Shown here piece after piece: positions 20,752 through 46,800 of a stretch of DNA of 64,000 nt. Both the position numbers and the translations under genes were made by a program. Each line of letters starts with the position of its first letter. Within the stretch, counting starts at the first letter, position 1. The notes below the pieces were generated by a model, which was given only the letters and a program-made list of their open reading frames with translations, was not told where the DNA came from and searched no databases. The DNA is taken from the NCBI RefSeq assembly GCF_016446395.1, contig NZ_CP051168.1, positions 3,621,579 through 3,685,578 on the forward strand. Reading direction: 5' to 3'. This DNA is from [Phormidium] sp. ETS-05. GTDB taxonomy: Bacteria; Cyanobacteriota; Cyanobacteriia; Cyanobacteriales; Laspinemataceae.

Positions 20752-21200
20752 TGTCCTTAGTCATTTGTCCCCTTCGGCAAGCTCAGGGCGGGCTTGGTCA
20801 TTTGTCCTTGGTCATTTGTCCTTGGTCATTTGTCATTGGTCATTGGTCATTGGTCATATAAGTGATAATTTGTTTGTATTTATTGTTAAAATTTTGATGT
20901 TTGGTTCATATGAACAAGTGACAAAGGACAAAGGACAAGTGACCAAGGACAAAGGACAAGAAGCAAAGGATAGCCGATACTTTATACTTGATAGTTGATA
21001 GTTGATAGTTGTCAATTGTCCGTAGGGGCACGGCGTCATCAAGATTTGGGTGAAACGATAAAGATTAATGATGCCGTGCCCTTACCAAGTGACAAAGGAC
21101 AAAGGACAAGTGACAAGTGACAAAGGACAAAGGACAAAGGACAAGTGACAAGTGACAAAGGACAAGTGACAAAGGACAAGTGACAAGTGACAAAGGACAA
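20752..21200. repeat. Composite STRR arrays (TTGGTCA, TTTGTCC, GGACAAA, GTGACAA) flanking a long-stem hairpin element (21022-21086).
   Basis: Read directly from the sequence. The arrays are upstream of the kinase gene. Confidence 0.9.
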
Positions 21201-21261
21201 ATGATTAGGGTGCTGACTCAGAAAAGGTGATGTAATAGTTGAAGGATTTGTAGCTGGCACC

Positions 21262-23841
21262 ATGAAAGGGGTTTTAAATCAAGAGGAGTTGGCTGCGATC
21301 GCCCTCGCTTCTCGGCAAAGTTTCCTCTATGAAGAGGCACCGGACCATCTGGCGACCCTGGAAAAGGGTATCGAACAACTGCGCCAAGGGGGGGAGGAAT
21401 ACACCCCCATTATCCGAGCCGCCCATTCTTTGAAAGGGGGGGCGGGTTTGGCATCGATGCCAGAATTATCCCGTTTGGCGCATAAGTTGGAAGATTTGCT
21501 CATTGCCCTGCGATCGGGAAGAATCACCGCCAGGGACACAGCCAATCGACTTTTGTCTCAAACCCTCGATCGCATCGCTGAGCAGCTATTGGCAGCAATG
21601 GGCAACCAAGAACTGCCCGAAGGCCCCCAAAAGTTGGAAGCTACCACCGCTGCTCTGGAAGAATTTTTAGCCCAGCTACCCACCGCCACCGACGCCGAAG
21701 CCGAACCCGAACCGGTGGCATTTTCATCTTTTCAGCAACCGAGTTTCTACAAAACTGCCCTCACTGAAGATTTGGAGGAATGCTTACAGCGGTTGGAAGC
21801 GGATATCACAAGTGCTGCAGCAGTTGCCAGTTTTGTGGAAGAAGCCACCCTCTTGGGGGAAACTCTGGGTTTGACTTGGTTGCGGGATATGGCGGCGGAA
21901 ATGGAGGCTGTGTCTGGTGACACACTGCCAGAGGCGGCTATATCGGAGATTATCTCTCGCATTCGTACCAGCCGCACCGAGTTTTTAACCGGTACAACGC
22001 CATCGCCGGAAACTACGCCACCGCCGGAAATTACGCCACCGCCAGAAACATCCCCCCCACCAAGGGACGATCGGGCAGGAGAAGGGGGGGTGGGAGCCAG
22101 CCTGCCGATCTTCAATTCTCAGATTCCCCAGCGGTTTTTAAAATATCTGATTTTACAGCCACAGGCAGCACCACCACCAGGGTTGCTACAGGTGCGGGTG
22201 CCTTTGTCACGCCTGGAGGCGATGGGCGATCGAGCCGCTGAGTTACTCGCTCAATGTCAGCGGTTACAAGATACCACCAATCCAGATATCCCCGCCGCCA
22301 TTACCGCCATCCGCTCTCGCTTAGAAGCCCTCAGCGCCGATATTACCGAGCTGCGCCTGGTGCCTTTCCGGCAGATAGCCGATCGCTACCACACCCCCCT
22401 AGAAAGCCTCAAACAACAATATCACAAACAAGTTCAGCTCCAAATCGAAGGCCAAGAAAACCTCGTTGATCAAGTCATCTTAGAACAACTACAAGCCCCC
22501 CTCACCCACCTATTTCGCAACGCCTTCGACCACGGTATCGAGCTACCCGTAGAAAGAAAAGCCCTGGGTAAACCCCCGATCGCCACCATCACCCTCGCCG
22601 CCACCACCCGCCGTTCTCACCTAGAAATTACCATCACCGATGATGGACGTGGCATCGATATTGAAACTGTTTATCAACGCGCTGTCGAAAAAGGACTGAC
22701 CAATCAAGATTATCACCAACTCACCACTGCAGAAATCCTGAAATTTATCTTCACCCCCGGTTTTTCCACCGCCAAACGTGTCACCGACCTATCAGGCAGG
22801 GGCGTTGGTTTAGATGTGGTCTTATCCCAAGTTTCTCGCCTCGGCGGTTCTCTAGAGCTAGCCACCAACCCGGGCTATGGCACCAAATTTATCATCACCG
22901 TGCCCCTAACCCAGACAGTTTTGCCCCTCTACTTTTTCCAATGTGGTGGTGCCTCCCTTGCCCTCCCTGCCAGCGATATTATCGATATTCTCGATATGAG
23001 CGATACCACAGAGAGGCCAGAAGAAATTATCTGGCAAAATCAATCTATCCCTTTGTTTAATTTAACCAATATCCTGCCCTATGGCCGCCAAGCTAGACGA
23101 ATAATTAACGCATCTGCAGCCCAGAGTCCAGAAACCGGGTGTCTGTCTAGCTCTCTGCTAAAGCCCTCACCCCCAGCCCCTCTCCCACCAGGGGAGAGGG
23201 GAGAAATGTTCAGCTCCGAGGTTTTGCATAGAAAACCGGTTTCTATAATTATTGATATTGGCCAAAAAATTGGGCTATTAGTAGATAATATTAGCGCCAA
23301 ATTATCCGCTGCTGTCAAGCCTTTTGACCCCACCTTACCCGTGCCAGCGTGGGTGGAGGGTTGGACTTGGGGAAGTCGTGGGGAAGTGGTGCCGATGCTA
23401 TCGGGAGCATCTCTGGCAGAAATAATTCCTGTCTCCACTGCGCCCGCTCAAACCACTATTCTCGTGGTTGATGATTCTCCCGCTGTGCGGCGCACCCTAG
23501 AAATGGTGTTATCCGCTGCAGGTTTTGCCGTTGTCACGGGCAATGATGGTCAGGAAGGTATCGCCGCTTTGACGGAAAATGCGGCGAGATTCAGTTTAGT
23601 GATATCAGATTTAGAAATGCCTAATCTGGATGGTTTTGGCTTATTGGCCGCTATCAAAAATCATCCGATTTGGCGTCGGTTGCCGGTGGCGATGCTCACT
23701 TCCCAAAACACGCCATACCACCGCCGTCGCGCTCTGGAATTGGGTGCTGCAGTTTACCTCACTAAACCTTTTGAACCGGCGACAATTTTAGCCAGTTTGT
23801 CGGGCTTGGGATTACCAAAAATCAGTGATATTATAGCCTAA
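21262..23841 (+). CDS. CheA-like hybrid histidine kinase (HPt - kinase - CheW - receiver).
   Basis: HPt motif [28 protein letters not shown]. HATPase region [13 protein letters not shown]...[12 protein letters not shown] CheW-like segment. A C-terminal REC domain ([15 protein letters not shown]...[19 protein letters not shown]...LTKPFE). A Pro-rich linker ([16 protein letters not shown]). Confidence 0.8.
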
Positions 23842-24423
23842 TTCGGCTACCATCCGCCGCAGCAGGGGCAAGCTCAAGCCGATAACGTTGGTATGGCAGC
23901 CTTCGATTTTTTCTACGAATAAGCCGCCGCGTCCATCAATGGCAAAGCAGCCAGCGCACTGGAGGGGTTCGCCGGTGGCAACGTATTCGGCAATTTCCCG
24001 ATCGCTTATATCGGCGAAAAATACCCGCGTCACCTGACATCTCACCACTGTTTGCCGTTTCCCCACATCGATTAAAGCATGACCTGTATAAAGTTCCCCC
24101 ACATTCTGGCGCATCAGCCGCCAGCGAGCTTCCGCCTCCGTTGAGTTCGCCGGTTTACCATGTATTTCCCCCGCCAAACTTAACACCGAATCACATCCCA
24201 ACACTAATAGGGGTTGTGGTCCTTCCTCTCCTCGCCAAACTCTGGCTGCCACACTTTCCGCCTTGCATAGAGCCAAAGTCTCCACCAACTCCACCGGGTT
24301 ATCTGACTCCACAGAAGTTTCATCAAAATCGCTATCTATAACCACCGGATGAATTCCCGCACTGATGAGCAACAACCGGCGAGCTTTCGACTTAGAACCC
24401 AAGATAAACTGACCTTTACCCAT
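23812..24423 (-). CDS. maf: Maf-like nucleoside triphosphate pyrophosphatase.
   Basis: [30 protein letters not shown]... and the length match Maf/YhdE. It overlaps the 3' end of the kinase gene by 30 nt. Confidence 0.75.
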
Positions 24424-24582
24424 TTGTCCTTTGTCCTTTGTCCTTTGTCCTTTGTCCTTTGTCCTTGGTCATTTGTCCTTTGTCCTTTGTCCTTTGACAA
24501 TTGACAATTGACAATTATCAATTATCAATTATCAATTATCAATTGTCAATTGTACTTTGGGGACAAGGGACAAGGGACAAAT
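24421..24582. repeat. STRR inverted-repeat array ((TTTGTCC)n ... (CAATTGA/CAATTAT)n ... (GGACAAG)n).
   Basis: Read directly from the sequence. Confidence 0.85.
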
Positions 24583-24584
24583 GA

Positions 24585-25128
24585 CTAATTCACAGAAAAA
24601 CTTTTGACCACAGTGTTAAACTGTGCTGAGCGTTTTTGCCAGCTATTTTCCGTGGTAGATAAATTCAAGGTGAATAATTTCCCCCGGCTTACAGCCACAC
24701 TAGCTAAATTGTGCCGATGCAGGTCGTTAGCCAGCTTCACGTCATATTCAAAAATGTAGTAACTTTTATCCCCTTTTTCCAGGCTTTCGGCGCTGAGCAG
24801 TTCTGCTTCCCGTCCCGAACCCGCAGGCGCGATCGCATTTTTCGACAGCTTATAACCAACTTCTGAAGGCGTGCCCAATTCTGCCAGAGTTTTGCCATCT
24901 GGTACTTGGGAAATCACCACGCTAACATTATCCATTTGGTTGATTAAATCGTGGAATACCACATCTGGTCCCTTACCCGCATTTACCTGCGTCCAGCCAT
25001 TGGGATAAAAACTGATATCCTTTGTAGCTATCTACGTATGGCTGCAGTCCCGCCGTCGCCGAAGCCGCGCAGCTAGTAACTGTCACACTCAGCACTAATA
25101 AAATAATTGTCGCAATCCGTTTGAACAT
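24585..25128 (-). CDS. cyanoP: PsbP-like protein CyanoP (lipoprotein), with an apparent 1-nt frameshift in a T run near 25000.
   Basis: The ATG at 25128 gives MFKRIATIILLVLSVTVTSC (lipobox) ...YVDSYKGYQFL, which then shifts frame to PNGWTQVNAGKGPDVVFHDLINQMDNVSVVISQV... (PsbP fold). Confidence 0.7.
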
Positions 25129-25392
25129 TGGTATGATTTCCTTGAACATCCGAGGATGTGACCCTTTTAGCTCTCATCCCGCCATTACTAGATTCTCACA
25201 ATCTGGCGGCATTTTCCACCACAGAAACCGGTTTGCTTCTGGGAAACCGGGGTGAAAACCTCGATCTATGGTGTCTGTCCCCGTTTTTCCCCGGTTATGG
25301 TGCAGACATCAAGCCAAGGCAAGAACCTCTCAGCCTTTGATGGGGTTAAACAATAAATTAGTAATTGCCAATATGCAATATTTAAACTAGCG

Positions 25393-25776
25393 TTAGGGGA
25401 TACCGGGGAAAGATTCCACCAGTTTGATTTTAATATCGGGGAAAGAATCCACGTATTTAATCTTGAAGTCAGGAAATGAATTTACTTCCTGCCATTTGCC
25501 GCACCGATCGGGAAAGGAATCAACTAACTGCACTTTTAAATCGGGAAAAGAATCAACTTTTTCCACTTTAATATCAGGAAAGCTATTGACTATCTGAAAT
25601 TTCCCATAAAGCTGCTGGCCATTATATGAGCAGTCCTGCGGGTTAAATTTGGTTTCTGTGCGCCCCGGAGTTACGGTGAGAACCAGCACCAGAGCCAAAA
25701 CAGCACAAAACAGAAATTGTAAAGTGCGCATAGAAAGCAGCCATAATTTTATCTGCAATTTTAACCTTATGGGCAC
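25393..25776 (-). CDS. Small secreted protein with six V(D/N/E)SFPD(I/L/F)K(V/I) decapeptide repeats.
   Basis: N-terminal signal/TM LQFLFCAVLALVLVLTVTPG, then repeats VNSFPDIKVEKVDSFPDLKVQLVDSFPDRCGKWQEVNSFPDFKIKYVDSFPDIKIKLVESFPGIP. Confidence 0.45.
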   Translation of the reverse strand: MPIRLKLQIKLWLLSMRTLQFLFCAVLALVLVLTVTPGRTETKFNPQDCSYNGQQLYGKFQIVNSFPDIKVEKVDSFPDLKVQLVDSFPDRCGKWQEVNSFPDFKIKYVDSFPDIKIKLVESFPGIP

Positions 25777-26567
25777 AACCGGCGAGCGGTGCGCAAAATT
25801 TGTCCGGCGAGAATGGCGGCGCCAAAACCGTTATCGATATTGACGACGCCGATGCCCGCTGCACAGGAATTGAGCATTGTCAAGAGGGGTGCGAGCCCCT
25901 GAAAGCTGGCGCCGTAACCGATGCTGGTGGGGACGGCAATTACAGGGGCGGCAGCTAACCCGGCGACGACGCTGGGGAGGGCGCCTTCCATCCCGGCGAC
26001 GACAATCAGGACGGAGGATTGGTGGATAATATGCTGGTTGGCGAATAGGCGGTGAATGCCTGCGACGCCCACATCGGCGAGCCGCTGCACCCGAAACCCG
26101 CATAATTCGGCGGTGACGGCGGCTTCTTCGGCTACGGGGAGGTCCGCAGTGCCTGCGCAGAGGATGCCAATACTGCCGGGATGTTGGGGTTCGCAGTCGG
26201 GGAGGGCGGTGGCACAGATGCGAGCTTGGGGGTAGTAGTGCAGTTCGGGGACTTTTTCCCGGACTTGCTCGAAGACTTCTGGGGTGATGCGGGTAGCCAT
26301 GACTACGGAATGGTTGCGGCGCATGGCTTGGAAGATATGGGCGATTTGCTCTGGGGTTTTCCCTGGTCCCCAGATGACTTCGGGGAAGCCGGTGCGCAGG
26401 TGGCGGTGGTTGTCGATGCGGGCGTATATTTCGCCGGAATTGGTGGCGCTGGAATTGCCGCTGAGGGGTTCAAACGCTAGGTGTTTGAGGTTTTCTAAGG
26501 CGGCGTCAGGATGGATTTTCCCGGCGGCGACGGCGGTGAGGAGGGTTTGTAGGGATTCGGGTGTCAT
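25767..26567 (-). CDS. larB: Nickel-pincer cofactor biosynthesis protein LarB (PurE-like carboxylase family).
   Basis: C-terminal PurE-like region GILCAGTADLPVAEE...IVVAGMEGALPSVVAGLAAAPVIAVPTSIGYG. An approximately 100-aa N-terminal extension is characteristic of LarB. Confidence 0.6.
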   Translation of the reverse strand: MTPESLQTLLTAVAAGKIHPDAALENLKHLAFEPLSGNSSATNSGEIYARIDNHRHLRTGFPEVIWGPGKTPEQIAHIFQAMRRNHSVVMATRITPEVFEQVREKVPELHYYPQARICATALPDCEPQHPGSIGILCAGTADLPVAEEAAVTAELCGFRVQRLADVGVAGIHRLFANQHIIHQSSVLIVVAGMEGALPSVVAGLAAAPVIAVPTSIGYGASFQGLAPLLTMLNSCAAGIGVVNIDNGFGAAILAGQILRTARRLCP

Positions 26568-26770
26568 TGGTCATTTGTCCTTGGTCATTTGTCATTGGTC
26601 ATTGGTCATTGGTCATTGGTCATTGGTCATTTGTCCTTTGTCCTTTGTCCTTTGTCTTTTTTTATTTATACAAATGAAAAAGGACAAAGTGTGACAATTG
26701 CCCTATATCTTATACAAGTGACAAGTGACAAGGGACAAGGGACAAGGGACAAGGGACAAGGGACAAATGG
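26566..26770. repeat. STRR inverted-repeat array ((TTGGTCA)n, (TTTGTCC)n ... (GTGACAA)n, (GGGACAA)n).
   Basis: Read directly from the sequence. Confidence 0.9.
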
Positions 26771-28558: not shown

Positions 28559-28574
28559 ACTTAATTAAATTATT

Positions 28575-28740
28575 AGTTTAAGTCCTTTGTCATTTGTCAT
28601 TTGTCCTTTGTTATTTGTCATTTGTTTTGTTATACAAGGGACAAAGGACAAGGGACAAGTGACAAATGACAATCCCCCAACCCCCTTTGAAAGGGGGGGA
28701 CTTGCGGACAAGTGACAAGTGACAAATGACAAATGACATT
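28575..28740. repeat. STRR inverted-repeat array containing a GC-clamp palindrome (28676-28702).
   Basis: Read directly from the sequence. Confidence 0.85.
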
Positions 28741-28742
28741 GC

Positions 28743-29222: not shown

Positions 29223-29463
29223 GTCATCCCCCCAGCCACTTAGAGTGGTATATTGTATCAGATTTTAGCGGTGCCAGGTGGGTTTGGCAGGGAAACACTT
29301 GATTACGGATGCGCGGAAAGTGTCATTAACCCGTAAAATGTGCGGTGTGGGGACACGGCATGGCGGCGGCGTAACTCCGGGGAAACCTTTTAGCGATCGC
29401 GCCCAATATCCTATGGACGCCGTGACCCTACGGACCTTTTTTTGATAGAGGAAGCGATACCAG

Positions 29464-29775: not shown

Positions 29776-29882
29776 CTTTTAGTGCCGCCACCCCCAGCCT
29801 CAAATCATGGCAGGGGTGGGCAATTTGGCGCAGGCTTTTTGCCTGCATAGAAAATTTTATCGATTCAGGAGATTAATTCCAC

Positions 29883-30239: not shown

Positions 30240-30430
30240 ATTTTTGTCCTTTGTCCTTTGTCACTTGTCCCTTGTCACTTGTCACTTGTCACTTGTCACT
30301 TGTCACTTGTCCCTTGTCCCTTGTATGAGTAAGACAATAAATGTTTTTGTTTCTCACTTGTATGAAAAAACAAAGGACAAATGACAAAGGACAAATGACA
30401 AAGGACAAATGACAAATGACAATTGACAAT
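30240..30430. repeat. STRR inverted-repeat array ((CTTGTCA)n ... (GGACAAA/TGACAAA)n).
   Basis: Read directly from the sequence. Confidence 0.9.
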
Positions 30431-30433
30431 TGA

Positions 30434-33077
30434 TTAGCTGTCACTGCGTGGGGGCAGGGGGTTGACTAAACCGCTGGCGGTACTAAATAAGTTGATGGGG
30501 TTTTTGCCATCGGTAATCAGTACGCTTTGGATGCCAAGACCTTCTAGCAAACGAGCCTGCATTTCTGGGCCTGCTTGAGCGATCGCCCGGAGGGTTTCTG
30601 TCCCGATCGCTGCCACTTTCTCGGCAAATTCCCGGCTAGTAATCTCCGCCATCGCCTGGGCTTTTTGCACTTCCAAATTGCTCAAAGCCTGCTGGTGTGC
30701 CAATTCTGCCTCTTGACGTGCCCTCATTTGCGCCAATTCTGTCTCAGCACGGATGCGGGTCGCTTCGGCTTCTTGTTGCGCCATACTTACGGCTAATTCC
30801 CCTTGAATGCGAGCCGCTTCGGCTTTTGCTCGCGCTGCCGCGATCGCCTCTCCCGTAGATTCAATAGCCGCGTTTTCCGCCTTTGATTCTAGCAGATTTT
30901 TCCGCTGTGCTTCCGAAGCCGCCTTATCAATAATTGCCTGCCTTTCTAACCGGGCTCGCTTCCTGTTCCAACCGCGCCGCATCCTGTCGCGCCGCCGCTT
31001 CTTGAGCATCCGTAGTAATTTTAATCGCCAACTGCACCGATTTCTGTAAACTCTTTAACGTTTCCTCATCCACCGGTTCCACCGATTGAATATCCACGTT
31101 AAAAATCACCAGATTATTCGTCCTGAATCGGAATTCATCGCGCACGTGCCCTTGGTCATCTAAGCCAAACACTGCTTGGCGAATAATCCGCGCCGAATTG
31201 CGGTGAAATTCATCAAAAGAAACACTAGCCACCGCACCCCGCACGCGAGAAGCAATAGCTTTACAAGCCGTATCCACAAAATCAGGCGCTTGAAACAGTT
31301 TGGCCGCCTCATCTTGATTGGTTTTATCTACATTAAAATACCAATTATAAGACAAGCGCAATTGTAACCGGGCGTGGTCTGCAGTTTCCACCGCAAACAA
31401 ATCGGTCATAAAGTCGGGTCCTAACAGCAAAGCCAGAGATTTAATCACATGGGGACGCTTGGGCACTCCTCCCGATAAACTCAGCACCGTAAAGGCTTCG
31501 TCTGGACCTAACATCACCAAATCTGGGCCAAACACAGTCCGGGCAGTTCTTTCCTTATAATCGTGAATCTGTACTGCCGCATTTTGGGGCACGTGAAACA
31601 CCACGGCGCGAGTTTTATCTCTTTGAAAGCTAGATTTCTGCTCGCCATCTTGGCGATATCTGCCCCGTTCAGAAACTGGGTCATTTTTAATCGCCAGCAA
31701 CTCTTCTACGATAGGCGGTACATCTTTTTCCCATAATTCTTCATAGGGACTGAGCATATATGCTCGCGGACCGCTGACTACTTTTAATTCCCCCGTTTGC
31801 ACGTCCCGGACGTAGATGCCTTCATTTTTATCTAAGGGAATGGCTTGGCGTTTTTCTACTACTTCCACCTCCACGCGGGGAATGTATTCTCGCGGTCCGG
31901 ATATCATCCATAAATCCCCCGGTTGACGGTGGATGATTTGGTCGCCTTCACCTTCATCGAAGGCTTCATTAGCCCGGAGTAACAAGGCTTCTTGTTCGCT
32001 GAGGACATAAATTCGGCGAATGCCCTCCGGTTGACCTTCAGAATCATCATCATCCGTATAGTAGGGGATTTCCAACTCTTCTCCGGGATGGAGGAAAAAG
32101 GAGATTCTCCCTTGACGGACTTCTCGTTTCCCTAGTTGCGGTTTGCCCAATTCATCGATGGGGTTGAAGACGATGCACCATTCCCGATCGCTCAGGGTGG
32201 TAATGGGTACTTCTCCCACCACTTCTTCATAGACATCGGGGATATGAATTTCCGCATCTTCTATAGTTACGAGCCATTCATCCCCAGCTTTGCGCCGCCG
32301 TCCGAAAATATCGGTAAAAGTCCGTTTAGCGCGCAAGTGTAAAGCGGTTTGTTCTGTTAATACATAAGCATCAATCAAGTCGATAACTTCTTCATCGACT
32401 CCGGGTAAATAAGAGCCTTCTTCTCTTACCAGCCATTCTTCCCCAGCGCGGCGCCTTTGTCCCGTGCGATCGGTGCAATTTTGTCGCGCCATCAAATGCA
32501 GCGCCTGATTAGGTTTGATAATTATCGCTTTCACCGTAGCGATAACTTCCACTTCCACGCGAGGAATATAAGTTCCTGGACCTTCAAATAGCCATTCATC
32601 CCCCGCCAACTGGTGGATAACGTTGTTTTGATTGTCAGTATAGGATAAATCTCTAATCGCTCGCAACCGCAGAGCTTGATTTCTTTCTACTACCTGCAAA
32701 AGCTGGACTTTTCCCTCGATTTCTTCCCCCGGATATACTGGGAAAGGCTCTTGCTGAAAGCGGATTTCTCGGTCGCCATATCGGAGTTTAATTTGACCGT
32801 GAGTATCCGCTACTGGTTGCCCCGACTCATCCCGCAATACGGGATTTTTTACTACGCAATAATGCCTAGGCGGCACTACGGTCATTTGCTGGGGTGACAT
32901 TACTACCCGTTCTTGGTCTCGCAGAGTAATCGTTTGGGGGCCAACTTCCAAACGGGTAACGCCAGTGTTGTTATCCAAGACGTGAATAAACTGTTGGGGT
33001 TTGAGGCGGATCGATCCCCCAGATATTCCGGGGAGTTCGCTGGGAGTTTCCCCAATGCGATCGGCTTTAGTCATCAA
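30434..33077 (-). CDS. Major vault protein (MVP) homologue, split by a +1 frameshift near 30940-30960 into a 716-aa N-terminal ORF and a 191-aa C-terminal ORF.
   Basis: The N-terminus ...[53 protein letters not shown]... mirrors the eukaryotic MVP N-terminus (...YIHVLDQN..VEVGPKTY...VPPRHYC..). Multiple MVP repeat units follow. The second ORF is the Ala/Glu/Arg/Gln-rich cap-helix coiled coil. The combined length of about 880 aa matches MVP. Confidence 0.75.
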
Positions 33078-33400
33078 GTTTCCTCAGCCATGATTGGAAT
33101 TGTCTTCTGATTTATTCTAGCCTTGGCTCTATTTTTTCGTCGATAAATATTAATTAACTTTTGTTACATTTTGGCGCAAATAGATAGATTTGTAGGTTGG
33201 ATCCGCCATCGACGAAACCCAACCTACAGATTTTGGCTAAGAGCTGATTTATAAAGTACATCTTGAAGGACATCGGCGCATGAAAGCGTCAAGGATCCCC
33301 CCCTGCCCCCCCTTAAAAAAGGGGGGGAATTTCTACAGCCCCCCTTAAACAGGGGTTGGGGGATCCAGATTTTCTTTATGAATCAGCTCTAATAACGGGG

Positions 33401-34397: not shown

Positions 34398-34580
34398 CAG
34401 CTTGTGGTTTGTCCTTTGTCATTTGTCACTTGTCCTTTGTCCTTTGTCACTTGTTACTTGTCACTTGTATGAATAAAAAATCCCAAAGGACAAAATAATC
34501 CCTACCCAAGGACAAAGGACAAATGACAAAGGACAAATGACAAAGGACAAATGACAAAGGACAAAGGACAAAGGACAAAG
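34398..34580. repeat. STRR inverted-repeat array between ctaB and ctaA.
   Basis: Read directly from the sequence. Confidence 0.9.
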
Positions 34581-34588
34581 GACAAAAA

Positions 34589-35518
34589 TTAATCCCGCAT
34601 CGCCAGGGTGGCGAATACGACCAAAGTGCCCAACAAGGCGGCCCCGGTGGTGTGGTGAGCGACGGTGAGGGGTTCGACTTGCAGGTGGAGGTAGAAGGTG
34701 GCGACGCCTAAACTAATTTGGCAAACCAGCAAAGTGGTGGCGGCGATCGCGAGACGGCCCAGAGTGGGATGGAGGTTTTGGTGCGCCAAGCCATGACGGC
34801 GAGGGTAAGGATGGCGGTGGTGGGGAAGACTACCCCGATGATGTGGCTGTGCATCACTGTGCATAGCTGCTGGTAGCCAAAGCATTGGTGTAAAGCCCAT
34901 TGGGAGGCGACTAGACCGCCGGAGATGCTTTGCAGATACACCAGGATGGCGCTACCAACTGCCACCCAGGGGAGTTTAGATCCCCCAACCCCCTTTTAAA
35001 GGGGGGGAAATGACGCCGGTGCCTTCATAGGGGGTGAGTGCGGCGGCGATCGTCAATAAGGTGATGAAAAATAACAAAGCGGTGCCCAAATGAGCGGTGA
35101 CAATATCAAACCGCAGCAGCTCAGTCACGGTGAGCCCGCCCAAAACCCCTTGAAACACGATTAAACCGAGGGCACCCGTGGCGGCCCAAGGTAGCCAACT
35201 GGGCAAGTGGCGGCGATACCACCAGCTACCCCCTGCGAGAGCAATGGCCATAATGCCAATTAGGGAAGCATCGAGGCGGTGAAACCATTCTAAGAACACT
35301 TGCAGATTCATTTGCCGAGCGGGCAATAATTCCCCGTAGCACAGGGGCCAGTCAGGGCAAGCTAGTCCCGCATTCATCACCCGCGTGGCGCTACCCACCG
35401 CCATGAGTAACAGGGTGGCAATAGCGATTTTCCAGACAAAACCACGGATCCGCTGTTGGGTTAAGGTGCTGTCACTGTTGGTAGTTGCCTGCTTCGGCTC
35501 CATCACTGAGTTAGCCAT
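34589..35518 (-). CDS. ctaA: Heme A synthase (CtaA/COX15), disrupted. An inserted GC-clamp palindromic element introduces a stop, and at least one further frameshift follows.
   Basis: Three consecutive minus ORFs in three frames (34976-35518, 34708-34965, 34589-34900) all look like COX15 transmembrane segments with conserved His (e.g. LACPDWPLCYG, TVMHSHIIGV, LTVAHHTTGA). The first ends inside the palindromic repeat at 34978-35010. Confidence 0.6.
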
Positions 35519-36045: not shown

Positions 36046-36077
36046 AGGCGAGGGGTTTCAATTGAGGAGGTTATGAT

Positions 36078-38900: not shown

Positions 38901-39050
38901 TTTTTGTCCTTTGTCCTTTGTCATTTGTCCTTTGTCATTTGTCATTTGTCCTTTGTCCCTTGTCACTTGTAACTTGTATTCACAAAAAATGACAAATCTC
39001 ACTTGTATGACAAAACAAAGGACAAAGGACAAATGACAAATGACCAATTT
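38900..39050. repeat. STRR inverted-repeat array between ctaD and ctaE.
   Basis: Read directly from the sequence. Confidence 0.9.
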
Positions 39051-39075
39051 GTAGTTTTCAAATAGGCGTAAATTC

Positions 39076-39702: not shown

Positions 39703-39894
39703 ACTCTACCAGGTAACTTACCTCAACTAGAAACCGGGTTTCTGCCTAGAAACCCGGTTTCTGCCTATTTTTGGCGATTTCTGGCGGTTTGTGGCAACGG
39801 AAAAAATTTTTCGCGTACCCCTTGACAGCCCCAGCTTTATCCACTATACTACTATATAGTGATATATATGCTCAGCCTGCTTCGGAGAACTCTT

Positions 39895-40437: not shown

Positions 40438-40613
40438 GTTTTTTGTCCTTTGTCCTTTGTCCTTTGTTATCAAAATGTAGGGGCACGGCATCATTAATCT
40501 GGAGGATTGACGAAAAATATTAATAACGCCGTGCCCCCTGTTTTGGGTAGTATAGCCCACCCTACTACTTTAAAAGGACAAAGGACAAAGGACTAATGAC
40601 CAATGACCAATAT

Positions 40614-41096
40614 TTAACGTTCTAACAGGTCAATCAGAAATTTTTTAGAGCCATTGGCTTCAGGGCGAAAGCCTAGGGGACAGATCAACAGCCCAACCAG
40701 AAACATCCCCAATGGTGTCAAATAGGTGGGATCAAAGGTGGCACTGGAGAAAGCGGCAATTAACACCCCCACGGCGGCTTGTCCCACCACACTCAACCAA
40801 ATTGCCATAAAAACCATCACAAATGGGTGCATGGTCATTTCAATATGAATTTTACTGCCTGTGCCGTCAGGGTAAATGCGGCCTTTGATGACCGGGATAA
40901 AAGAGTTGCGATAATTGATAATCCGGCTAATCTCGAAATAACTCTCACTAATTTTCCCTTGGTATGGTTTATCCGGCTTGGTCATTCCCCATCGGATATT
41001 GCGGCTGGGAGGTTCTACGACTGAGATTAACTTTTCTCGGACGATATCGGGAGGCAGAGCGGTGGTGATGGTGAAACGCTCGAACGGGAAAATCAT
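40614..41096 (-). CDS. Hypothetical membrane protein.
   Basis: 160 aa with two C-terminal TM helices and no motif. Confidence 0.4.
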   Translation of the reverse strand: MIFPFERFTITTALPPDIVREKLISVVEPPSRNIRWGMTKPDKPYQGKISESYFEISRIINYRNSFIPVIKGRIYPDGTGSKIHIEMTMHPFVMVFMAIWLSVVGQAAVGVLIAAFSSATFDPTYLTPLGMFLVGLLICPLGFRPEANGSKKFLIDLLER

Positions 41097-41325
41097 ACCT
41101 CGCCCTCAAATGCGCTCTCCCCATTCTGGCACAAAAGTTCGGAGTTGAGCTTTAGCCGAAAAGGGGACGGGGAGACGGGGGGACGGGGGGACTTCTGGAC
41201 CAGGGGACTAGGGGACGGGGAGACCAGGGGACCAGGGGACGGGGGGACCAGGGGACTGGGGACCGTCACCCCCTCACCCCGTCTCCCCGTCCCTTTGGGT
41301 GTTGGGTTTCGTTCCTCAACCCAAC

Positions 41326-44300
41326 CTACCAAGGAGTGCCAATCAGAGTAAATGGGGCCCAGTAGTAGGGGTGAGTAAAATCGAGGTCGGCTTGCTTTGG
41401 CTTCACCTCGCCGCGCAACATGGCTATTTGTGCTTGCTGTAGGGCCTCGACTTTGGTGGGGGACTGTCCGAGATTCTGGTAAAGTTGCGCCATGAGTTCT
41501 GAGGTGCCGCCGTCGCTGACTTCCCACAGGGTGGCGATCGCGGTTTTTACCCCCGCTTGCACCGATAAGCCTGCAAACCCCATTTCCGCGTCCCGGTTGC
41601 CCACGGCGGTTTCACAGGCACTGAGTACGAGTAATTCTACCGAGCGATCGCCATACCATTGCACCTGGCGTAAATCTTCCAAATGCTTCTGGCCATCCCA
41701 AAATTGGATGTAGTTATTATCCTTATTCTGGAATGCGGCATGGGTGGAAATGTGAATGATGTTAAACCGCTGGCTTTGGCGAGCTTCAGCGAGATTCGCT
41801 AACGTAGCTTGTTCGTTGCGATAAATGGCGACTCCATTCGGCCATGAAGAGTTGATGGCGTCCAGTGTTTCATTTACCCCCAGGAGGTTTTCTAATTTTT
41901 TGACATTGGCCAACCTCTCAAAATCAGATATTCCCATTGCCAACACTTCCCCATCCTGCAATCTGTTGTAGGTAGCGTCACTGAAGGAAGAACTACTGAT
42001 AATTTGGGCTACTTTGTATTTCTCTACCAGAAATTGTTGGCCATCATGCAAAGCTGCTATCGGTAGCAGACTCATACTATCTGGCAGCCCAAATATTAAT
42101 GTGTTGATTCCCAGGGATTGCAACTCTGCTTCCAAAGGTTTAATCAGGATATTATACAGAATTTGTGCATCATGTACTACAGATGTTTTGGCTGTGTTCT
42201 TATCACGTACACTATTGTGAAATAATTTCACCATTTCTTTCAATTCATCAATTTTATTGGTAGTAACTATCTCCTCAACCAGTTGTCCTTCACTATTGAT
42301 GCGGCGCTGGATGCGATGTTCTGTCAGTGGATAGACAGAGGTTGGTCGCCCAGAACCAGTCAACATCACTAACCGCATTCCTATCCCTTTTTGGTCATCT
42401 ACATAAATGATTGCGGGTTTTAAGCTTGTCTCCCGACTTATTTTAGTAAGCATTTCGCGCATTTGAGTTTCGCTTTTGGTTTTCGGTAGCTCTTTATTGC
42501 GCAAATACTCGGTATATTCATTAGTGCGCTGTTGATCAATCAAATCGAATAGGCTTTCTCCATTAGCAGGAGGAGAGGTCGGTAAATTGCTGGCGGGGTT
42601 GAGATTGGGACTCTGTGGTGGCGCCAGGAATCGGGGATTTTTGGGGTTATCACGTCCCAGGGAAACTGGTTCAGTGGTAGGGTTGCTGCTATCCCCTGCA
42701 TTAGGAGAAACTCCATTCCCTTGATTGAGTGGTTGCTCTGTTGGGGGGGTTGCTGGTGCGGGTGCTACGGTTCCGGGAAAATCGGGAGCCGCATTCGGGG
42801 TTGAAGTTTGGTTAACGGTGGGTTGGTTGTATGGGCGCTGATACTGCTGAAGACCAAGGGAAAGTTTCACCGAAGGCTCGATTATCAGAATATTATCCGA
42901 CAATACAGGGCCAATGGTTATGCCTTGGGGAGCTTGTAATGTAATTTGTGCATCGGGAAATCCTGACCCAGAATTGGCGTCTAAAGCACCGGTGACAATA
43001 CGTCCCACGTCAGAGTTTAAACTGATAATTCCCGCTTGTTGATTTTCAGAACGGCTAGTAATGTCGCCGGTGGTGATATTTTGGTTGGCATTTATCTGGA
43101 CGTTACCGGCTGGTCCGTCGATCGCGCTACCATTCACATCACCCAGATTAACTTCACCTGCGGTACTGGTGATGGTGACATTGCCAGCAGCATTCAGGGG
43201 AGTAGGTTCTGGGCCGCTAGTGGGTGTTGGCGCCACAACTGTGGCAGTGGGAGTGGGGTTATTCACTACAGGAGCAGCAGTGACTGACGATGGCGATATG
43301 TTGGCGGGAGCAATTACTGGCGAAGCAGTGGCGGTAGCAGTTGCTGGTGATGTGGTGGTGGGGGTGGTTGGTCCAGCAGAAGTATTGATATTTCCCAGAT
43401 TGATATCTCCAGGAGCTGTGGCGGTAACGCCGCCACCAGAACCATTACTGGCAGAACTGCTGTTGATATCACCGATGGTAATGCTGCCTTCTGTACTGGT
43501 GGCAGTAACATCACCTGCATTTCCAGAATTAACGTTGGTGCTAATATCCTCGGCGGTAACGTTTCCAGCAGCTTGTAAGTTTACCGGTCCACCTGTACCC
43601 ACGTTGGCTTTAGTAGTGAGAATGTTAGCGGTGACATTGCCGTTTGTGCTGGTAATAGTGATGCTGCCGCTGGTTCCCAGTGCGGTTGCGGGAAGAGCGG
43701 GGGAATTACTCGTGGCTGGTGGAGTGGTGGCTGCAGGTTGTGCCGGAGCTGTGGCTGTAGGTTGTGCCGGAGCTGTGGTTACAGGTTGTGGTGTGGGAGT
43801 CGTGGCTGCAGGTTGTGCCGGAGCTGTGGTTACAGGTTGTGCCGGAGTGGCGCTAGCTGGTGGAGTCGTGGCTGCAGGTTGTGCTGGATCTGTGGTTGTT
43901 GGCGGGGGACTGTAGTTGGTAGAGGCATCAACATTACCCACGGTGACATTATTGTTACCGGATACACCAATATTTCCCGCATTTCCCTGCTGCGCGGAAC
44001 TATTCAAATCTTCGGCTTTAACGCCGCCTTCGCTGCTGTTGACTGAAATATTGTTGCCGTTGCCTTCTAAGCCCGATCGGCTATCGATACTCCCAGTGTT
44101 AACATCATCTGTGGCGTTGATGCTAGTTTCTCCGGCATCCCCTTCTACGGTTGATGTCACCACAGTGGGATTGCTAACGGATTCCTCTCGACCGTCCGTG
44201 GTCTCCACTTCGATTTTAATTCCTGAATTGCCGTTATTGGGAGTTGTGCTGTCACTGTCGCCGGTTTGAGTGTCAGTACCATCATCAGTAGGGGTATCTT

Positions 44301-46401
44301 CAGATGGAGGGGTTGTTGGTTCTGGTTCTGGCTGTGGTTCCGGTTCTGGCTGTGGTTCCGGTTCTGGCTGTGGTTCTGGTTCCGGTTCTGGTTCCGGTTC
44401 TGGTTCCGGTTCTGGTTCCGGTTCTGATGTAGTGGGTGGTTTTGGGGCGATCGGCGTAATTTTCACCGGTCCAGCCAGCAAACCCTGACCCGGTAAAGAC
44501 ATAGTTTCTGAAGGAGTTAGCGTCACCGAACCATCATCATTACAAGCCACAGTTCCCGATGCACTGGTGCCGCAATTGTTCTGGAAAAAATCATACACAG
44601 CGCCGCTGGTAATGGTAATACTGCCACCCACTTCTATGGTGATACTGCCTGCATTTCCGAACCAAGTGCCAGTTATGGTTTCTCCGATATTAATATTCTC
44701 AGCCGCTTTCAGGTAAATAGGGCCACCATCACCGGACATAGAGCCAGTAGTAATCACGCCACCGGTCAAATTAGCGCCGCTCGTGAGGGAAATAGAGCCA
44801 CCATTGCCATTAGGCGCATTTGCATCTATCCCCCCAGCATTGATATTGCCAGTAGCATTGACCGTAATCGAACCTGCATCGCCGCCGTACTTAGTGTTAA
44901 CGGCTAGATGAGTACCGCCAGAAAAGGCAGGAATCATCCCAAAATCGCCCCCAGCGGTGATATCAATCGTGCCACCACTTCCCTCCTTGCTAACAGCACG
45001 AACTTTATCCGTAGCAATGTTGCCTCCGGCGTCTAAAATAATACTGCCTGCATCCCCTTTCTGCCATACGCTAGCTTCTACCTGACCAGTGGTAATATCA
45101 TTCATGGCTCGAATTTCTATATTGCCGCCATGACCGGAGTCCGTCGTAGCGCCCACGTTTTCAAGTTTAATGCTACCGTTAGTGCTGTTAATGGTGATGT
45201 CGGCAGCAGTTCCACTCGCGCTATAGCCACTAATTAATCCTGTGGCATTAATATCGCCGTTGGCGTCGATGGTGATGTCACCTGCATCAGCAGCAGCAGT
45301 GGAAGAAGAATTGAGGGAACCGGTTATCTCAATTTTGCCATCACTATTGATATGGATATCTCCCCCCGGCGAACCACCGGTATTGATACTGTCAAGAGTG
45401 ATATCCCCTTTTGCTTCCAAGGTGACGTTACTACCTGCAGCATTGAGGGTTCCAGCGTTCAGAAAACCGCCAGACAGAAGATGGATACCACCACCAGCAA
45501 TACCAGATGTAGTGGTGGCATTTGTGGCAACTAAAGCGCCGTTTTCTATTTTGACTCCAGAACCGGTCAAGTTTACAGTACCATCGGCATTTTTTTGCAC
45601 TCCCGTGGCATGAGTGGCGACACCCCCCGTGAGCAATCCCGGTAAATCTAGCGGAGAAAATGTCAAATCATTAGGCAGACTTCCCGCCGCACTGCTAGGG
45701 ATGATATCCAAACTCAACAACATACCATCTTGACTCAGGCGCAGGACATTGCCACCGTCCACCGATGCTATATTTATTTGGCCACCTGGTGCAGTTAAGC
45801 TACCGGTACTGATGACTGTGCCTCCGAATAGGTTTAAATTTTTTCCCTCTAATACGGATAAATTACCAGAATTGATAATTGTCCCCGGTTGGGACATGGT
45901 GAAGGCAAATTGATTGGGGGTTCCGGTTAAATTGGTGTAGTCGTTATTGCCAATGGCGTTAAACCAGTTGCTGCCTAAACCTATGCCATTGGCGGTAGTT
46001 GCCGTAAATGAACCCATAACGTTTAATTGGGCGTTGGCACCAAAAACAATTCCCGCTGGATTCATTAGAAACAAATTGGCATTGCCGCCCGTCACCTGTA
46101 TTAGCCCATTAATTAGTGAGGCATCGCCGCCAACTACACGACCGAGGATGTTTTGAATGGTGGGGTTTGTCTGGAAATTGGCAGTTTGTCCAGAATCGAG
46201 ATTAAATTGGTCAAAACTGTGAAATAGATTCGTCCCCCCGGTTGTACCGTCTTTAATATCTATGGTGGTGCCGTTAATATTGATATTGGTGTTGGTGGGG
46301 TTGCCGGTTTCTGGGGTGATTTGTGCCAGAACTGGTGTCCCAGCTAATCCGATTCCTAATGGTAGTAGGCATAAAGCTGTATGCAATCCTGATGGTTTCA
46401 T
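41326..46401 (-). CDS. Giant secreted two-partner-secretion exoprotein: N-terminal haemagglutination (TPS) domain, beta-helical repeat body, Pro/Thr/Glu-rich linkers, and a C-terminal CHAT (caspase-like) protease domain.
   Basis: Signal peptide. The TPS domain ...IDIKDGTTGGTNLFHSFDQFNLDSGQTANFQ...NILGRVVGGDASLINGLIQVTGGNANLFLMNPAGIVFG. Gly/Asn/Thr-rich beta-helix repeats. (PEPE/PQPE)n linkers. C-terminal CHAT His/Cys dyad (IIHISTHAAF ... LLVLSACETAVG). Confidence 0.75.
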   Translation of the reverse strand: MKPSGLHTALCLLPLGIGLAGTPVLAQITPETGNPTNTNININGTTIDIKDGTTGGTNLFHSFDQFNLDSGQTANFQTNPTIQNILGRVVGGDASLINGLIQVTGGNANLFLMNPAGIVFGANAQLNVMGSFTATTANGIGLGSNWFNAIGNNDYTNLTGTPNQFAFTMSQPGTIINSGNLSVLEGKNLNLFGGTVISTGSLTAPGGQINIASVDGGNVLRLSQDGMLLSLDIIPSSAAGSLPNDLTFSPLDLPGLLTGGVATHATGVQKNADGTVNLTGSGVKIENGALVATNATTTSGIAGGGIHLLSGGFLNAGTLNAAGSNVTLEAKGDITLDSINTGGSPGGDIHINSDGKIEITGSLNSSSTAAADAGDITIDANGDINATGLISGYSASGTAADITINSTNGSIKLENVGATTDSGHGGNIEIRAMNDITTGQVEASVWQKGDAGSIILDAGGNIATDKVRAVSKEGSGGTIDITAGGDFGMIPAFSGGTHLAVNTKYGGDAGSITVNATGNINAGGIDANAPNGNGGSISLTSGANLTGGVITTGSMSGDGGPIYLKAAENINIGETITGTWFGNAGSITIEVGGSITITSGAVYDFFQNNCGTSASGTVACNDDGSVTLTPSETMSLPGQGLLAGPVKITPIAPKPPTTSEPEPEPEPEPEPEPEPEPQPEPEPQPEPEPQPEPEPTTPPSEDTPTDDGTDTQTGDSDSTTPNNGNSGIKIEVETTDGREESVSNPTVVTSTVEGDAGETSINATDDVNTGSIDSRSGLEGNGNNISVNSSEGGVKAEDLNSSAQQGNAGNIGVSGNNNVTVGNVDASTNYSPPPTTTDPAQPAATTPPASATPAQPVTTAPAQPAATTPTPQPVTTAPAQPTATAPAQPAATTPPATSNSPALPATALGTSGSITITSTNGNVTANILTTKANVGTGGPVNLQAAGNVTAEDISTNVNSGNAGDVTATSTEGSITIGDINSSSASNGSGGGVTATAPGDINLGNINTSAGPTTPTTTSPATATATASPVIAPANISPSSVTAAPVVNNPTPTATVVAPTPTSGPEPTPLNAAGNVTITSTAGEVNLGDVNGSAIDGPAGNVQINANQNITTGDITSRSENQQAGIISLNSDVGRIVTGALDANSGSGFPDAQITLQAPQGITIGPVLSDNILIIEPSVKLSLGLQQYQRPYNQPTVNQTSTPNAAPDFPGTVAPAPATPPTEQPLNQGNGVSPNAGDSSNPTTEPVSLGRDNPKNPRFLAPPQSPNLNPASNLPTSPPANGESLFDLIDQQRTNEYTEYLRNKELPKTKSETQMREMLTKISRETSLKPAIIYVDDQKGIGMRLVMLTGSGRPTSVYPLTEHRIQRRINSEGQLVEEIVTTNKIDELKEMVKLFHNSVRDKNTAKTSVVHDAQILYNILIKPLEAELQSLGINTLIFGLPDSMSLLPIAALHDGQQFLVEKYKVAQIISSSSFSDATYNRLQDGEVLAMGISDFERLANVKKLENLLGVNETLDAINSSWPNGVAIYRNEQATLANLAEARQSQRFNIIHISTHAAFQNKDNNYIQFWDGQKHLEDLRQVQWYGDRSVELLVLSACETAVGNRDAEMGFAGLSVQAGVKTAIATLWEVSDGGTSELMAQLYQNLGQSPTKVEALQQAQIAMLRGEVKPKQADLDFTHPYYWAPFTLIGTPW

Positions 46402-46459
46402 CTTATTTTTACTTCATGTGTATTCGGTGATTTATCCCCTACTTTCAAAGGGGGTTGGG

Positions 46460-46800
46460 GGATTCTTTTGTCTTTGGTCATTGGCTGTAGGGGCACGGCG
46501 TCATTGAGATTTCTCGTGAAACCCAGATATTAATGAGGCCGTGCCCCTACCACGGGATGATTTTTTTCATATGTGCAATTGTTATTTGTCGTTGGCCATT
46601 GGTTGTGGGGGCACTGCGTTATTAAGATTTCTCGTGAAACCTAGATATTAATGAGGCCGTGCCCCTACCAGGGGAGGCTTTTTTCATATGTGCAATTGTC
46701 ATTTGTACTTGGTCATTGGTTGTGGGGGCACGGCGTTATTAAGATTTCTCGTGAAACCCAGATATTAATGAGGCCGTGCCCCTACCACGGTAGATTGAGG
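46460..46800. repeat. Three tandem copies of an approximately 120-bp unit, each containing a 21-bp-stem hairpin (GTAGGGGCACGGCGTCATTAA ... TTAATGAGGCCGTGCCCCTAC).
   Basis: Units start near 46486, 46606 and 46726. Single copies of the hairpin occur at 21022-21086 and 40478-40543. Confidence 0.85.

Follow-up and report, generated by a model that had tools for sequence, protein, structure and literature searches.

The window that we analyzed, a stretch of 64,000 nucleotides from [Phormidium] sp. ETS-05, contains five full copies of a 64-nt hairpin and at least five related elements revealed by a covariance-model scan. Two of the full copies (A and B) are singletons and three form a tandem cluster. 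They lie essentially where the initial annotation had placed hairpins (21022–21086, 40478–40543 and 46460–46800); the hairpins are thus real, while the sequence quoted for them proved to be a composite of several copies.

Copy A (21022–21085, minus strand), located between divergent enolase and CheA-like genes, is a long-loop double-foot hairpin of 64 nt, GTAGGGGCACGGC-N38-GCCGTGCCCTTAC, with a point change in one foot. A covariance model derived from copies in other genomes gives it 69.4 bits on the minus strand and 64.6 bits on the plus strand, and its fold z-score is -5.2. It lies within a block of 448 bp (20754–21201) in which an AT-rich centre is flanked by inverted arrays of 7-nt repeats, TTGGTCA/TTTGTCC to its left and GACAAAG/GTGACAA to its right. 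A further match inside the CheA-like gene (22897–22909) was within chance expectation and was set aside.

Copy B (40477–40540, minus strand; 64.4 bits, fold z-score -4.0) is a 64-nt hairpin that has lost one foot (CCCCCTG) and is located between convergent genes, one for a rhodanese and one of 160 aa. It is abutted by a fragment of a second hairpin family, family 2 (40541–40567, minus strand; reverse complement GTAGTAGGGTGGGCTATACTACCC), which has 14 nt in common with the 5' end of the hairpins at 52974, 53578 and 54181. Copy B and this fragment make up a small REP cluster (the identification of the hairpins as REPs is discussed below). To the left of copy B, TRF revealed an array of TTTGTCC heptamers (40442–40467), the inverted partner of which, (GGACAAA)n, is located at about 40575–40603.

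The tandem cluster (46467–46790, plus strand) is flanked by a TPR gene and a TPS/CHAT gene, both on the minus strand, and consists of 2.8 units with a period of 117 bp and 90% matches. It includes three full 64-nt copies on the plus strand (46487–46550, 46605–46668 and 46722–46785) with scores of 61.5–72.6 bits and z-scores of -4.6 to -7.4. In each 117-bp unit, heptamer-like sequences (TTTGTC/TTGGTCATTGG) are followed by the hairpin and then by a T-rich spacer. Since the inter-hairpin segments are mutually homologous and not unique spacers, the array represents a duplication of whole 117-bp units, and its interpretation as a CRISPR array was rejected. Every copy in this genome sits within inverted arrays of STRR-like heptamers.

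The unit has a GTAG foot at its 5' end, followed by a G+C-rich stem of 10 bp that begins with GGGG, an interior of some 38 nt, the complementary arm and, usually, CTAC. The interior is well conserved in length and poorly conserved in sequence; the 13-nt arms are separated by exactly 38 nt in five of the five full copies. As single-stranded DNA, these copies fold with z-scores from -4.0 to -7.4 into a 13-bp stem, then a mismatch, roughly seven weak pairs and a loop of some 22 nt, and they score 61–73 bits with the covariance model. A GTAG or GTGG tag (GT[AG]G, 0–2 nt 5' of the foot) was found in all five of them, in both short REPs described below and in family 2, and all copies have the GGGG/CCCC stem base. 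The CCCCTAC double foot is present in the three array copies, in the element at 54233–54260 and in family 2, and both singletons have a degenerate 3' foot (CCCTTAC at 21079–21085 in copy A and CCCCCTG at 40534–40540 in copy B). In total, GTAGGGGCACGGC with up to two mismatches occurs 13 times in the window versus 1.25 expected, a number reached in none of 100 shuffles.

Hairpins were also found after each of the retropepsin copies. They had been described as shorter hairpins sharing the same ends but are in fact 71–89 nt long and form a distinct family, family 2 (GTAGGGTGGGCA...), with a 12-bp stem; fold z-scores of -4.7 and -7.5 were obtained for them. The first one (52977–53047, plus strand; GTAGGGTGGGCAATGCC...GCACTGCCCACCCTAC) follows retropepsin copy 1, the second (53581–53652) has a foot mutated to CCCGAC, and the third (54184–54272) carries a nested REP. 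All three result from one tandem duplication of about 605 bp comprising the gene and the hairpin, and not from three insertions. The nested element is the perfect palindrome reported in this region, a double-foot REP of 28 nt (54233–54260; GTAGGGGCGAATGGCCATTCGCCCCTAC) replacing 12 nt of its host hairpin.

Besides these, a short canonical REP of the A:T subfamily (GTAG plus GGGACACGGC-AT-GCCGTGTCCC) is located at 58011–58036 on the plus strand (24.3 bits and E about 5e-4 with the covariance model; z-score -4.4). Both this element and that at 54233–54260 fit the short loop of 2–5 nt of the published RNAMotif descriptor. A short intergenic REP of family 2 (12668–12692; GTAGGGCTGGCATTGCCCACCCTAC) has a weak covariance score of 10.5 bits. 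Finally, a degenerate relative of 85 nt (29347–29431, plus strand; GTGGGGACACGGC...GCCGTGACCCTAC) was revealed upstream of ccmK. It is conserved in the related contigs L124, L126 and L127 and was set aside as a hairpin, because it folds no better than shuffled sequences (z-score -0.46).

A scan of genomes revealed at least 158 copies of the hairpin in at least 120 loci, which rules out that the copies are limited to the window. Approximately 76 of the loci listed are cyanobacterial and come from more than 20 assemblies, mostly with the 38-nt spacer; among all copies listed, the spacer is 38 nt long in 65 of 158 and 36–39 nt long in 119 of 158. At least 17 loci were found in Microseira wollei, at least 12 in Microseira BLCC-F43 and at least eight in a Phormidiaceae MAG. 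Microseira and Phormidiaceae loci likewise contain tandem clusters of a REP with its flank, as known from REPIN clusters (PMC3116915), and many Microseira contigs end in these hairpins or in heptamer arrays. Among the matches listed, 51 of the 54 classifiable sites are extragenic (28 between tandem, 17 between convergent and six between divergent genes). The interior contains weak recurrent asymmetric motifs, TAA.ATT ... AAA.ATT, followed by GAT beside the better-conserved foot, and its length and motifs recur in Nostocales, Oscillatoriales, Pleurocapsales and Microcystaceae. Local duplication alone, without a family outside the window, can therefore be considered practically excluded: the array at 46467–46790 and the three post-retropepsin hairpins did arise by local tandem duplication, but the same element is found in all these loci of other genomes, and the unlinked sites in the window have unrelated flanks.

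The changes in the stems had been taken to be compensatory. Within the window, however, all stem differences are one-sided and lead to a G-T pair, which is tolerated in the stems, or to a mismatch. Compensation was observed only between subfamilies of different genomes, for example G:C to A:T at stem position 4, or T:A to C:G when the REP at 54233–54260 is compared with the REP in loci L197 and L167. Among cyanobacterial copies collected in a relaxed search (up to two mismatches per arm), there were 33 one-sided breaks versus five compensatory cells, and these five represent one and the same substitution; decay accounts for most of the stem variation in these copies. The scan matches do not allow covariation in the main stem to be assessed, because the scan pattern fixed those bases, and RNAalifold retains just this ascertained stem, with no covariation term. 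For an inner extension of the stem (columns 15–21 with 44–50), 84% of cells are paired versus 82% in shuffles, and the covariation score is 0.118 versus 0.095, with five of 500 shuffles reaching the observed value. These figures suggest such an extension only weakly, and RNAalifold drops it. Single-footed copies, when oriented by the interior alone, are divided 21 versus eight, which, the copies not being independent, is suggestive of an element polarity with one foot better kept.

The same hairpins are physically associated with RAYT genes in other genomes. Three non-cyanobacterial loci of the scan (L001, L070 and L088) contain a RAYT gene whose coding sequence includes or adjoins the hairpin; homologues of the encoded protein carry the name "REP element-mobilizing transposase RayT" and match PF01797. 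In 71 of 80 metagenomic RAYT loci a GTAGGGG...CCCCTAC hairpin is located within the gene; 15 of these belong to the GGCACGG type. REPs nearly identical to that at 54233–54260 were found inside the RAYT coding sequences of L197 and L167, and long forms of 69–71 nt, comparable to the 64-nt copies, were present in the RAYT genes of L128, L171, L179 and L183. Two loci, rich in HIP1 and presumably cyanobacterial, contain long-loop REPs both in and beside the RAYT gene, one of them with a near-twin of 54233–54260. No RAYT gene was revealed within the 64-kb window. Two homology searches for a cyanobacterial RAYT (with the L088 RAYT and with a three-sequence profile) gave only Chloroflexi-like or unnamed proteins, a tblastn search of plasmids gave five matches, all non-cyanobacterial, and the RAYT alignment in the supplement of Di Nocera et al. 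(PMC3733652) includes no cyanobacterial sequence. This genome probably possesses a RAYT nevertheless, and some of the copies may still be active.

We consider it likely that the window hairpins are GTAG-tagged "double-foot" repetitive extragenic palindromes (REPs), the non-autonomous counterpart of RAYT/TnpA_REP HUH-tyrosine transposases of subclass 2.4. Elements of this kind are already known: they are small selfish palindromic REPs moved by RAYT, a domesticated single-strand transposase.

Differences in the presence of these sequences were observed between near-identical genomes. A close relative (L121, about 96% identity) lacks the 448-bp block holding copy A: BLAST comparison revealed a clean junction from position 20753 to 21202 of the window, at which the aligned relative reads ATTTG^ATT, with TG possibly duplicated, in an intergenic region of 255 bp. 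The relative has its own hairpin copy at a non-syntenic place, and the content of heptamer arrays also differs between near-identical strains. The clean case of presence and absence concerns the heptamer block together with the hairpin and is therefore no proof that the 64-nt unit moves alone. The 28-nt REP is nested in just one of the three recent tandem duplicates described above.

The suggestion that the elements are MITE-like mobile hairpins thus holds in its mobile part, given their occurrence in more than 20 cyanobacterial genomes, the relative without the block and the nested REP, but not in the MITE label. A classical MITE would be a deletion derivative of an IS, with terminal inverted repeats (GTAGGGGCACGGC) bound by a DDE transposase and with TA-type duplications. 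Inverted-repeat ends and a short, non-coding, multi-copy element agree with this, as does the larger inverted-repeat unit, ATAGACCAC...GTGGTCTAT, within which the hairpin lies in Nostocales. The proposed check of flanking sequences for TA target-site duplications was carried out and revealed no flanking direct repeat of 2, 3 or 4 bp in any of 53 intact copies, while about 3.3 repeats of 2 bp are expected by chance among 53 copies; this argues against a classical MITE. Moreover, the same hairpins are found inside or beside Y1/HUH RAYT genes and not DDE genes, and the 5' GTAG tag with a G-C stem base is a REP signature (PMC6006769; PMC3733652). A classical MITE is therefore very improbable.

Somewhat less remote, but still unlikely, is a family of RNA elements spread by host selection, such as terminators, attenuators, mRNA stabilisers or small RNAs. 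Consistent with a role in RNA, 45 of the 51 extragenic sites are tandem or convergent, i.e., mostly downstream of genes, G-T pairs are tolerated, a plus-strand T-run follows the array units, and many REPs are transcribed, as argued by Di Nocera et al. (PMC3733652). However, Rfam 15 gave no match at the gathering threshold in the whole window, and at E<=1 only sub-threshold chance matches of the array to miRNA and snoRNA models. The window sites represent three gene contexts (divergent, convergent and co-directional), one of them between divergent promoters, and there is no conserved promoter-like site. The T-runs of the array lie antisense to the genes on either side, T-runs are lacking in copies A and B, and in a scan for Rho-independent terminators only small sub-hairpins of the array pass, on the same antisense strand. 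In addition, RNAalifold detects no more than the ascertained stem, and the copies decay through one-sided stem changes. The terminator and small RNA functions that had been proposed are thus not supported as primary roles, in view of the missing Rfam match, the mixed contexts and the T-runs in antisense orientation only.

Under the REP reading, by analogy with E. coli TnpA_REP and IS200/IS605, a RAYT would bind the folded hairpin and the GTAG tetranucleotide on single-stranded DNA and would cut and rejoin beside the foot. New copies would land beside or inside other hairpins, building clusters and tandem arrays. Spread without target-site duplications, nesting and clustering could all be expected because the proposed cutting and rejoining occurs next to the foot; effects on neighbouring transcripts, if any, would be secondary. 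What counts against this model is that the interior of 22–38 nt exceeds the 2–5-nt loops of canonical REPs, and it gives no account of the interior motifs (TAA.ATT, AAA.ATT) or of the fixed spacer length. The absence of a RAYT gene from the window, the non-palindromic single arms, the heptamer block involved in the clean indel and the mainly one-sided stem changes also speak against it. It is conceivable, though improbable, that the 64-nt form is more than a passive RAYT substrate, its interior being a second recognition or cleavage determinant or a site used by the host, or that the heptamer palindromes are landing pads for REPs and small cassettes or their co-mobile carriers.

The finding opens no new mechanism. 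It extends the known RAYT-type REPs by an Oscillatoriaceae genome and by a GGGGCACGGC variant with a long loop, a form widespread in cyanobacteria that is missed by REP descriptor searches restricted to short loops. Together with the surrounding heptamer arrays, the hairpins account for indels that distinguish near-identical strains, for breaks in assemblies and for in-frame insertions within genes, and they would be useful as strain markers.

Among known systems, the small dispersed repeats (SDRs) of Nostoc resemble the window hairpins as small palindromes embedded in heptamers and nested, but are smaller (21–27 nt). Elhai et al. reportedly described them in 2008 as very small mobile palindromic repeats of filamentous cyanobacteria, 21–27 nt long, that frequently lie within tandem heptamers and within each other. 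According to the description by Di Nocera et al. (PMC3733652), SDRs are treated as untagged REP-like sequences. No SDRs were reported outside the Nostocaceae (PMC5861425), whereas the window comes from an Oscillatoriaceae genome. The GTAG-12, GTAG-15 and GTAG-16 REPs, to go by their description in Di Nocera et al. (2013; PMC3733652), are, like the window elements, GTAG-tagged stem-loops and are found in Anabaena, Nostoc and Cyanothece. In the same description they are located mostly between unidirectional and convergent genes, their subfamilies differ by complementary stem changes, and GTAG-15 has unusually large loops (9–15 nt), which the window interiors still exceed.

The REPs of subclass 2.4 RAYTs (Quentin et al., 2018, PMC6006769; group 4 of Bertels) share with the window elements the GTAG/CTAC feet and at least three G-C pairs at the stem base. 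The text of that study describes the double foot, the three G-C pairs and in-frame REPs inside tnpA_REP, the last of which are reproduced here in 71 of 80 loci. Its table of subclass 2.4 REPs gives GTAGGGGCACGGCATTGCCGTGCCC for the Calothrix PCC 7507 RAYT AFY32102, GTAGGGGCACGGCATGCCGTGCCC for Pelodictyon and long forms of 69–71 nt for Anabaena cylindrica. The core GTAGGGGCACGGC...GCCGTGCCC was therefore already present there for the Calothrix and Pelodictyon RAYTs, and the arm GGGCACGGC/GCCGTGCCC is identical in the window and in both of these REPs. This table does not include the 64-nt form, with its GGGGCACGGC arms and its interior of a fixed 38 nt containing weak motifs, and the search descriptor of that study admitted only loops of 2–5 nt or bulged stems.

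Similarly to the window elements, REPINs (Bertels and Rainey, 2011, PMC3116915) are long hairpins in which the ends are highly conserved and the spacer, though variable, is conserved in length, and they occur both as singletons and in ordered tandem clusters that take in flanking sequence. RAYT-dependent spread was argued for them, and the type was reported in Nostoc punctiforme. The window element is not a strict REPIN, because each of its arms (GTAGGGGCACGGCRTCATTAA) alone is not self-complementary and the unit folds as one hairpin only. True doublets of the short GGGGCACGGC REP were found in the non-cyanobacterial loci L075, L057, L060 and L104. The window unit looks like a REPIN without inner arms, and the loss of inner arms from a REPIN is the route that Quentin et al. 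(PMC6006769) suggest for the origin of double-foot REPs.

The long-stem hairpins described by the initial annotation were recovered as five full units at or near the places it gave, and they are RAYT subclass 2.4-type repetitive extragenic palindromes (REPs) with long loops, carried on the chromosome of a filamentous Oscillatoriaceae cyanobacterium. Each unit is 64 nt long with 38 nt between the arms. Two are singletons (21022–21085 and 40477–40540), each with one degenerate foot, and three (46487–46550, 46605–46668 and 46722–46785) lie in a tandem repeat (period 117 bp, 2.8 copies, 90% identity). The inter-hairpin segments of this array are homologous, and therefore whole units were duplicated. 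The sequence GTAGGGGCACGGC with two or fewer mismatches was found 13 times in the window against 1.25 expected, a number that no shuffled sequence reached; folded as single-stranded DNA, the five units gave z-scores of -4.0 to -7.4 relative to shuffles. Short canonical relatives are present at 58011–58036 and 54233–54260 (the latter a 28-nt REP). The neighbours of the window hairpins are ordinary housekeeping genes: enolase, CheA-like hybrid kinase, ispF, ccmK, ctaCDE, rhodanese, TPS/CHAT protein and ribBA.

A second family (GTAGGGTGGGCA...TGCCCACCCTAC) contributes one hairpin after each of three tandem retropepsin-like gene copies, and these hairpins and genes arose by a single 605-bp duplication. 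A short member of the family is located at 12668–12692, and a fragment at 40541–40567 abuts the second singleton. It should be mentioned that the gene, which encodes a retropepsin-like aspartyl protease of 147 aa (PF13975, PF13650), is a tandem triplicate at 52509–54041 with a period of ~605 bp, its third copy being shortened to a 107-aa ORF. Overall, the REPs of the window comprise singletons, one small cluster and one tandem cluster.

The GTAG foot of the elements pointed to the REP literature. The GTAG-tagged REPs on record (Di Nocera et al., PMC3733652) comprise cyanobacterial families as well as dimers and clusters, and there are subfamilies whose stems show complementary changes. Subclass 2.4 of RAYT, the REP-associated transposase, is abundant in cyanobacteria, and long and "double-foot" REPs (5' GT[AG]G, 3' C[TC]AC, a stem base of three G-C pairs) have been defined for it, with in-frame REPs recorded within the RAYT gene (Quentin et al., PMC6006769). 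No cognate RAYT of the [Phormidium] sp. ETS-05 elements was seen in the 64-kb window. In three scan loci from other genomes (L001, L070, L088) a RAYT is encoded, and the hairpin lies within or adjoining its coding sequence; the hairpin arms translate to RGTA...RAPT. Homologues of this RAYT bear the name "REP element-mobilizing transposase RayT".

A RAYT-profile scan of metagenomes yielded 80 loci (L128–L207), 71 of which carry a GTAGGGG...CCCCTAC hairpin inside the RAYT gene at the same relative position, with stems varying among loci; 15 of the 71 are of the GGCACGG type, and several have long loops. Two loci (L171, L197) we infer to be cyanobacterial because they are HIP1-rich. The former contains an in-frame long-loop REP of 65 nt; the RAYT gene of the latter holds GTAGGGGCGAACGGCCGTTCGCCCTTAC, a near-twin of the window REP at 54233–54260 with a T:A to C:G double change, and a long-loop REP also lies just upstream of the gene. 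Judging from their reading frames, part of these RAYTs look inactivated: a frameshift coincides with the REP in L001 (2473–3044), and an in-frame stop follows the REP in L197 (992–1489).

Scanning species-representative genomes with the pattern GGGGCACGGC-N28-48-GCCGTGCCCC revealed at least 158 copies in at least 120 loci. Among the matches listed, ~76 loci in more than 20 assemblies are cyanobacterial (Microseira, Nostoc, Calothrix, Tolypothrix, Aulosira, Hormoscilla, Argonema, Phormidiaceae, Xenococcaceae, Microcystaceae), while the others (Chlorobi, Anaerolineae, Coxiellaceae and others) are mostly the short palindrome GTAGGGGCACGGCATGCCGTGCCCCTAC or its inverted doublets. Among the at least 158 copies listed, the spacer measures 38 nt in 65 and 36–39 nt in 119. 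When ORFs were called crudely, extragenic positions accounted for 51 of 54 sites (28 tandem, 17 convergent, 6 divergent). Hairpin-plus-flank tandem clusters with periods of 79–97 bp are frequent in Microseira and Phormidiaceae. The 64-nt hairpins of Calothrix and Tolypothrix lie within a larger inverted-repeat unit, ATAGACCACGCT-[REP]-GACAGATGTGGTCTAT (Nostocales loci L046, L053, L094, L098, L105, L106), which suggests a REP nested inside a second small element. The palindrome AGAAACC(C/G)GGTTTCT, repeated in the window (39727–39767, ~23128–23145/23225–23240), alternates with GGGGCACGGC hairpins in a REP cluster of the Oscillatoriaceae MAG M33_DOE_052 (L047, 7085–7160 and 7365–7440).

Changes in the stems had been called compensatory; in the window they proved to be G-T pairs or mismatches (21082, 46615 and inner-stem positions). 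Because the first scan pattern fixed the arms, the search was redone allowing two mismatches per arm. It returned 33 one-sided breaks and 6 G-T pairs, along with 5 compensatory cells that all represent one G:C to A:T subfamily, which is also seen at window position 58011. Beyond the main stem RNAalifold retained a single pair, and it assigned no covariation; the inner-stem extension was only marginally above controls. An Rfam search gave no matches, and terminator and promoter scans were at background level. When copies were oriented by the interior alone, the foot beside the conserved GAT was retained more often (49 vs 36 of 58), suggesting that the element may have polarity. The REP reading does not account for the conservation of spacer length and interior motifs or for the consistent embedding in heptamer palindromes.

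The proposed TA target-site duplication did not hold, since flanking direct repeats were absent from all 53 intact copies; this absence fits IS200/IS605-type chemistry. At 99% identity, the best match to the enolase of the window comes from an Oscillatoriaceae MAG (next-best 87%, Oscillatoria and Kamptonema), and the contig of this relative (L121, GCA_054682715.1) aligns to 11365–25751 with ~96% nucleotide identity. The relative lacks 20754–21201, with a clean junction, and carries its own REP copy where synteny stops. As the missing block consists of the first singleton within inverted 7-nt-repeat arrays, simple insertion of the 64-nt unit does not account for the event. Of the three near-identical duplicates, only the third contains the 28-nt REP at 54233–54260, which takes the place of 12 nt there and therefore arrived after the duplication. 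In a related contig (L126, ~700–760), a 53-nt hairpin of another kind, CGAAGGTAAGCA...TGCTTACCTTCG, with a HIP1 site has been inserted precisely at the CCCTAC foot of the degenerate element 29347–29431 upstream of ccmK; it is missing from the window (29425–29435 compared) and from two other related contigs (L124, L127).

STRR-like heptamer arrays (TTTGTCC, TTGGTCA, TTGTCAC and complements) occupy most intergenic regions of the window and form long inverted repeats about a short centre (6749–6795, 14191–14398, 19133–19263, 20793–21201, 24423–24553, 26562–26766, 28582–28738, 30243–30433, 34402–34586, 38903–39048, 40442–40603). In L121, a ~960-bp PIN/RHH toxin-antitoxin cassette lies between heptamer arms that abut at window 19133–19263. 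The palindrome at 34402–34586 adjoins a CtaA/COX15 haem A synthase present as two ORFs (34589–34900 and 34976–35518, minus strand), which may reflect a frameshift, pseudogene or interruption.

A third hairpin family, GCCCTCACCCCCAGCCCCTCTCCC-ACCA-GGGGAGAGGGG, forms an in-frame insertion (~23146–23244) in the CheA-like hybrid kinase gene (859 aa in the window vs 828 aa in the relative) and recurs in 136-bp and 86-bp tandem arrays (57362–57674, 58888–59339). G-rich octamer and nonamer units, (GGGGACGG)n and (AGGGAGGAT)n, are repeated in tandem, and CCCACACTC forms a perfect array of 10 copies; these repeats lie at 41162–41263 (within or close to the beginning of the TPS/CHAT gene region), 58040–58130 and 58134–58226. 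Two more intergenic GTAG hairpins with other stems, GTAGGTTGGATCC...CCCAACCTAC (33192–33227) and GTAG+CCACAGGTT-TT-AACCTGTGG (55254–55277), possibly belong to additional REP families. A 716-aa protein (30927–33077, minus strand; L124, 2566–5205) strongly matches eukaryote-type major vault protein domains (Vault, Vault_2/3/4, MVP_shoulder).

In the supplementary table of PMC6006769, GTAGGGGCACGGCATTGCCGTGCCC is entered for the Calothrix PCC 7507 RAYT AFY32102, its core also for Pelodictyon and one gammaproteobacterium, and long forms of 69–71 nt for Anabaena cylindrica; the 28-nt double-foot forms in that table resemble the window REP at 54233–54260. This kind of element is already known and its core sequence already catalogued, and the modest addition made here consists of this one 64-nt variant together with its broad distribution in cyanobacteria.
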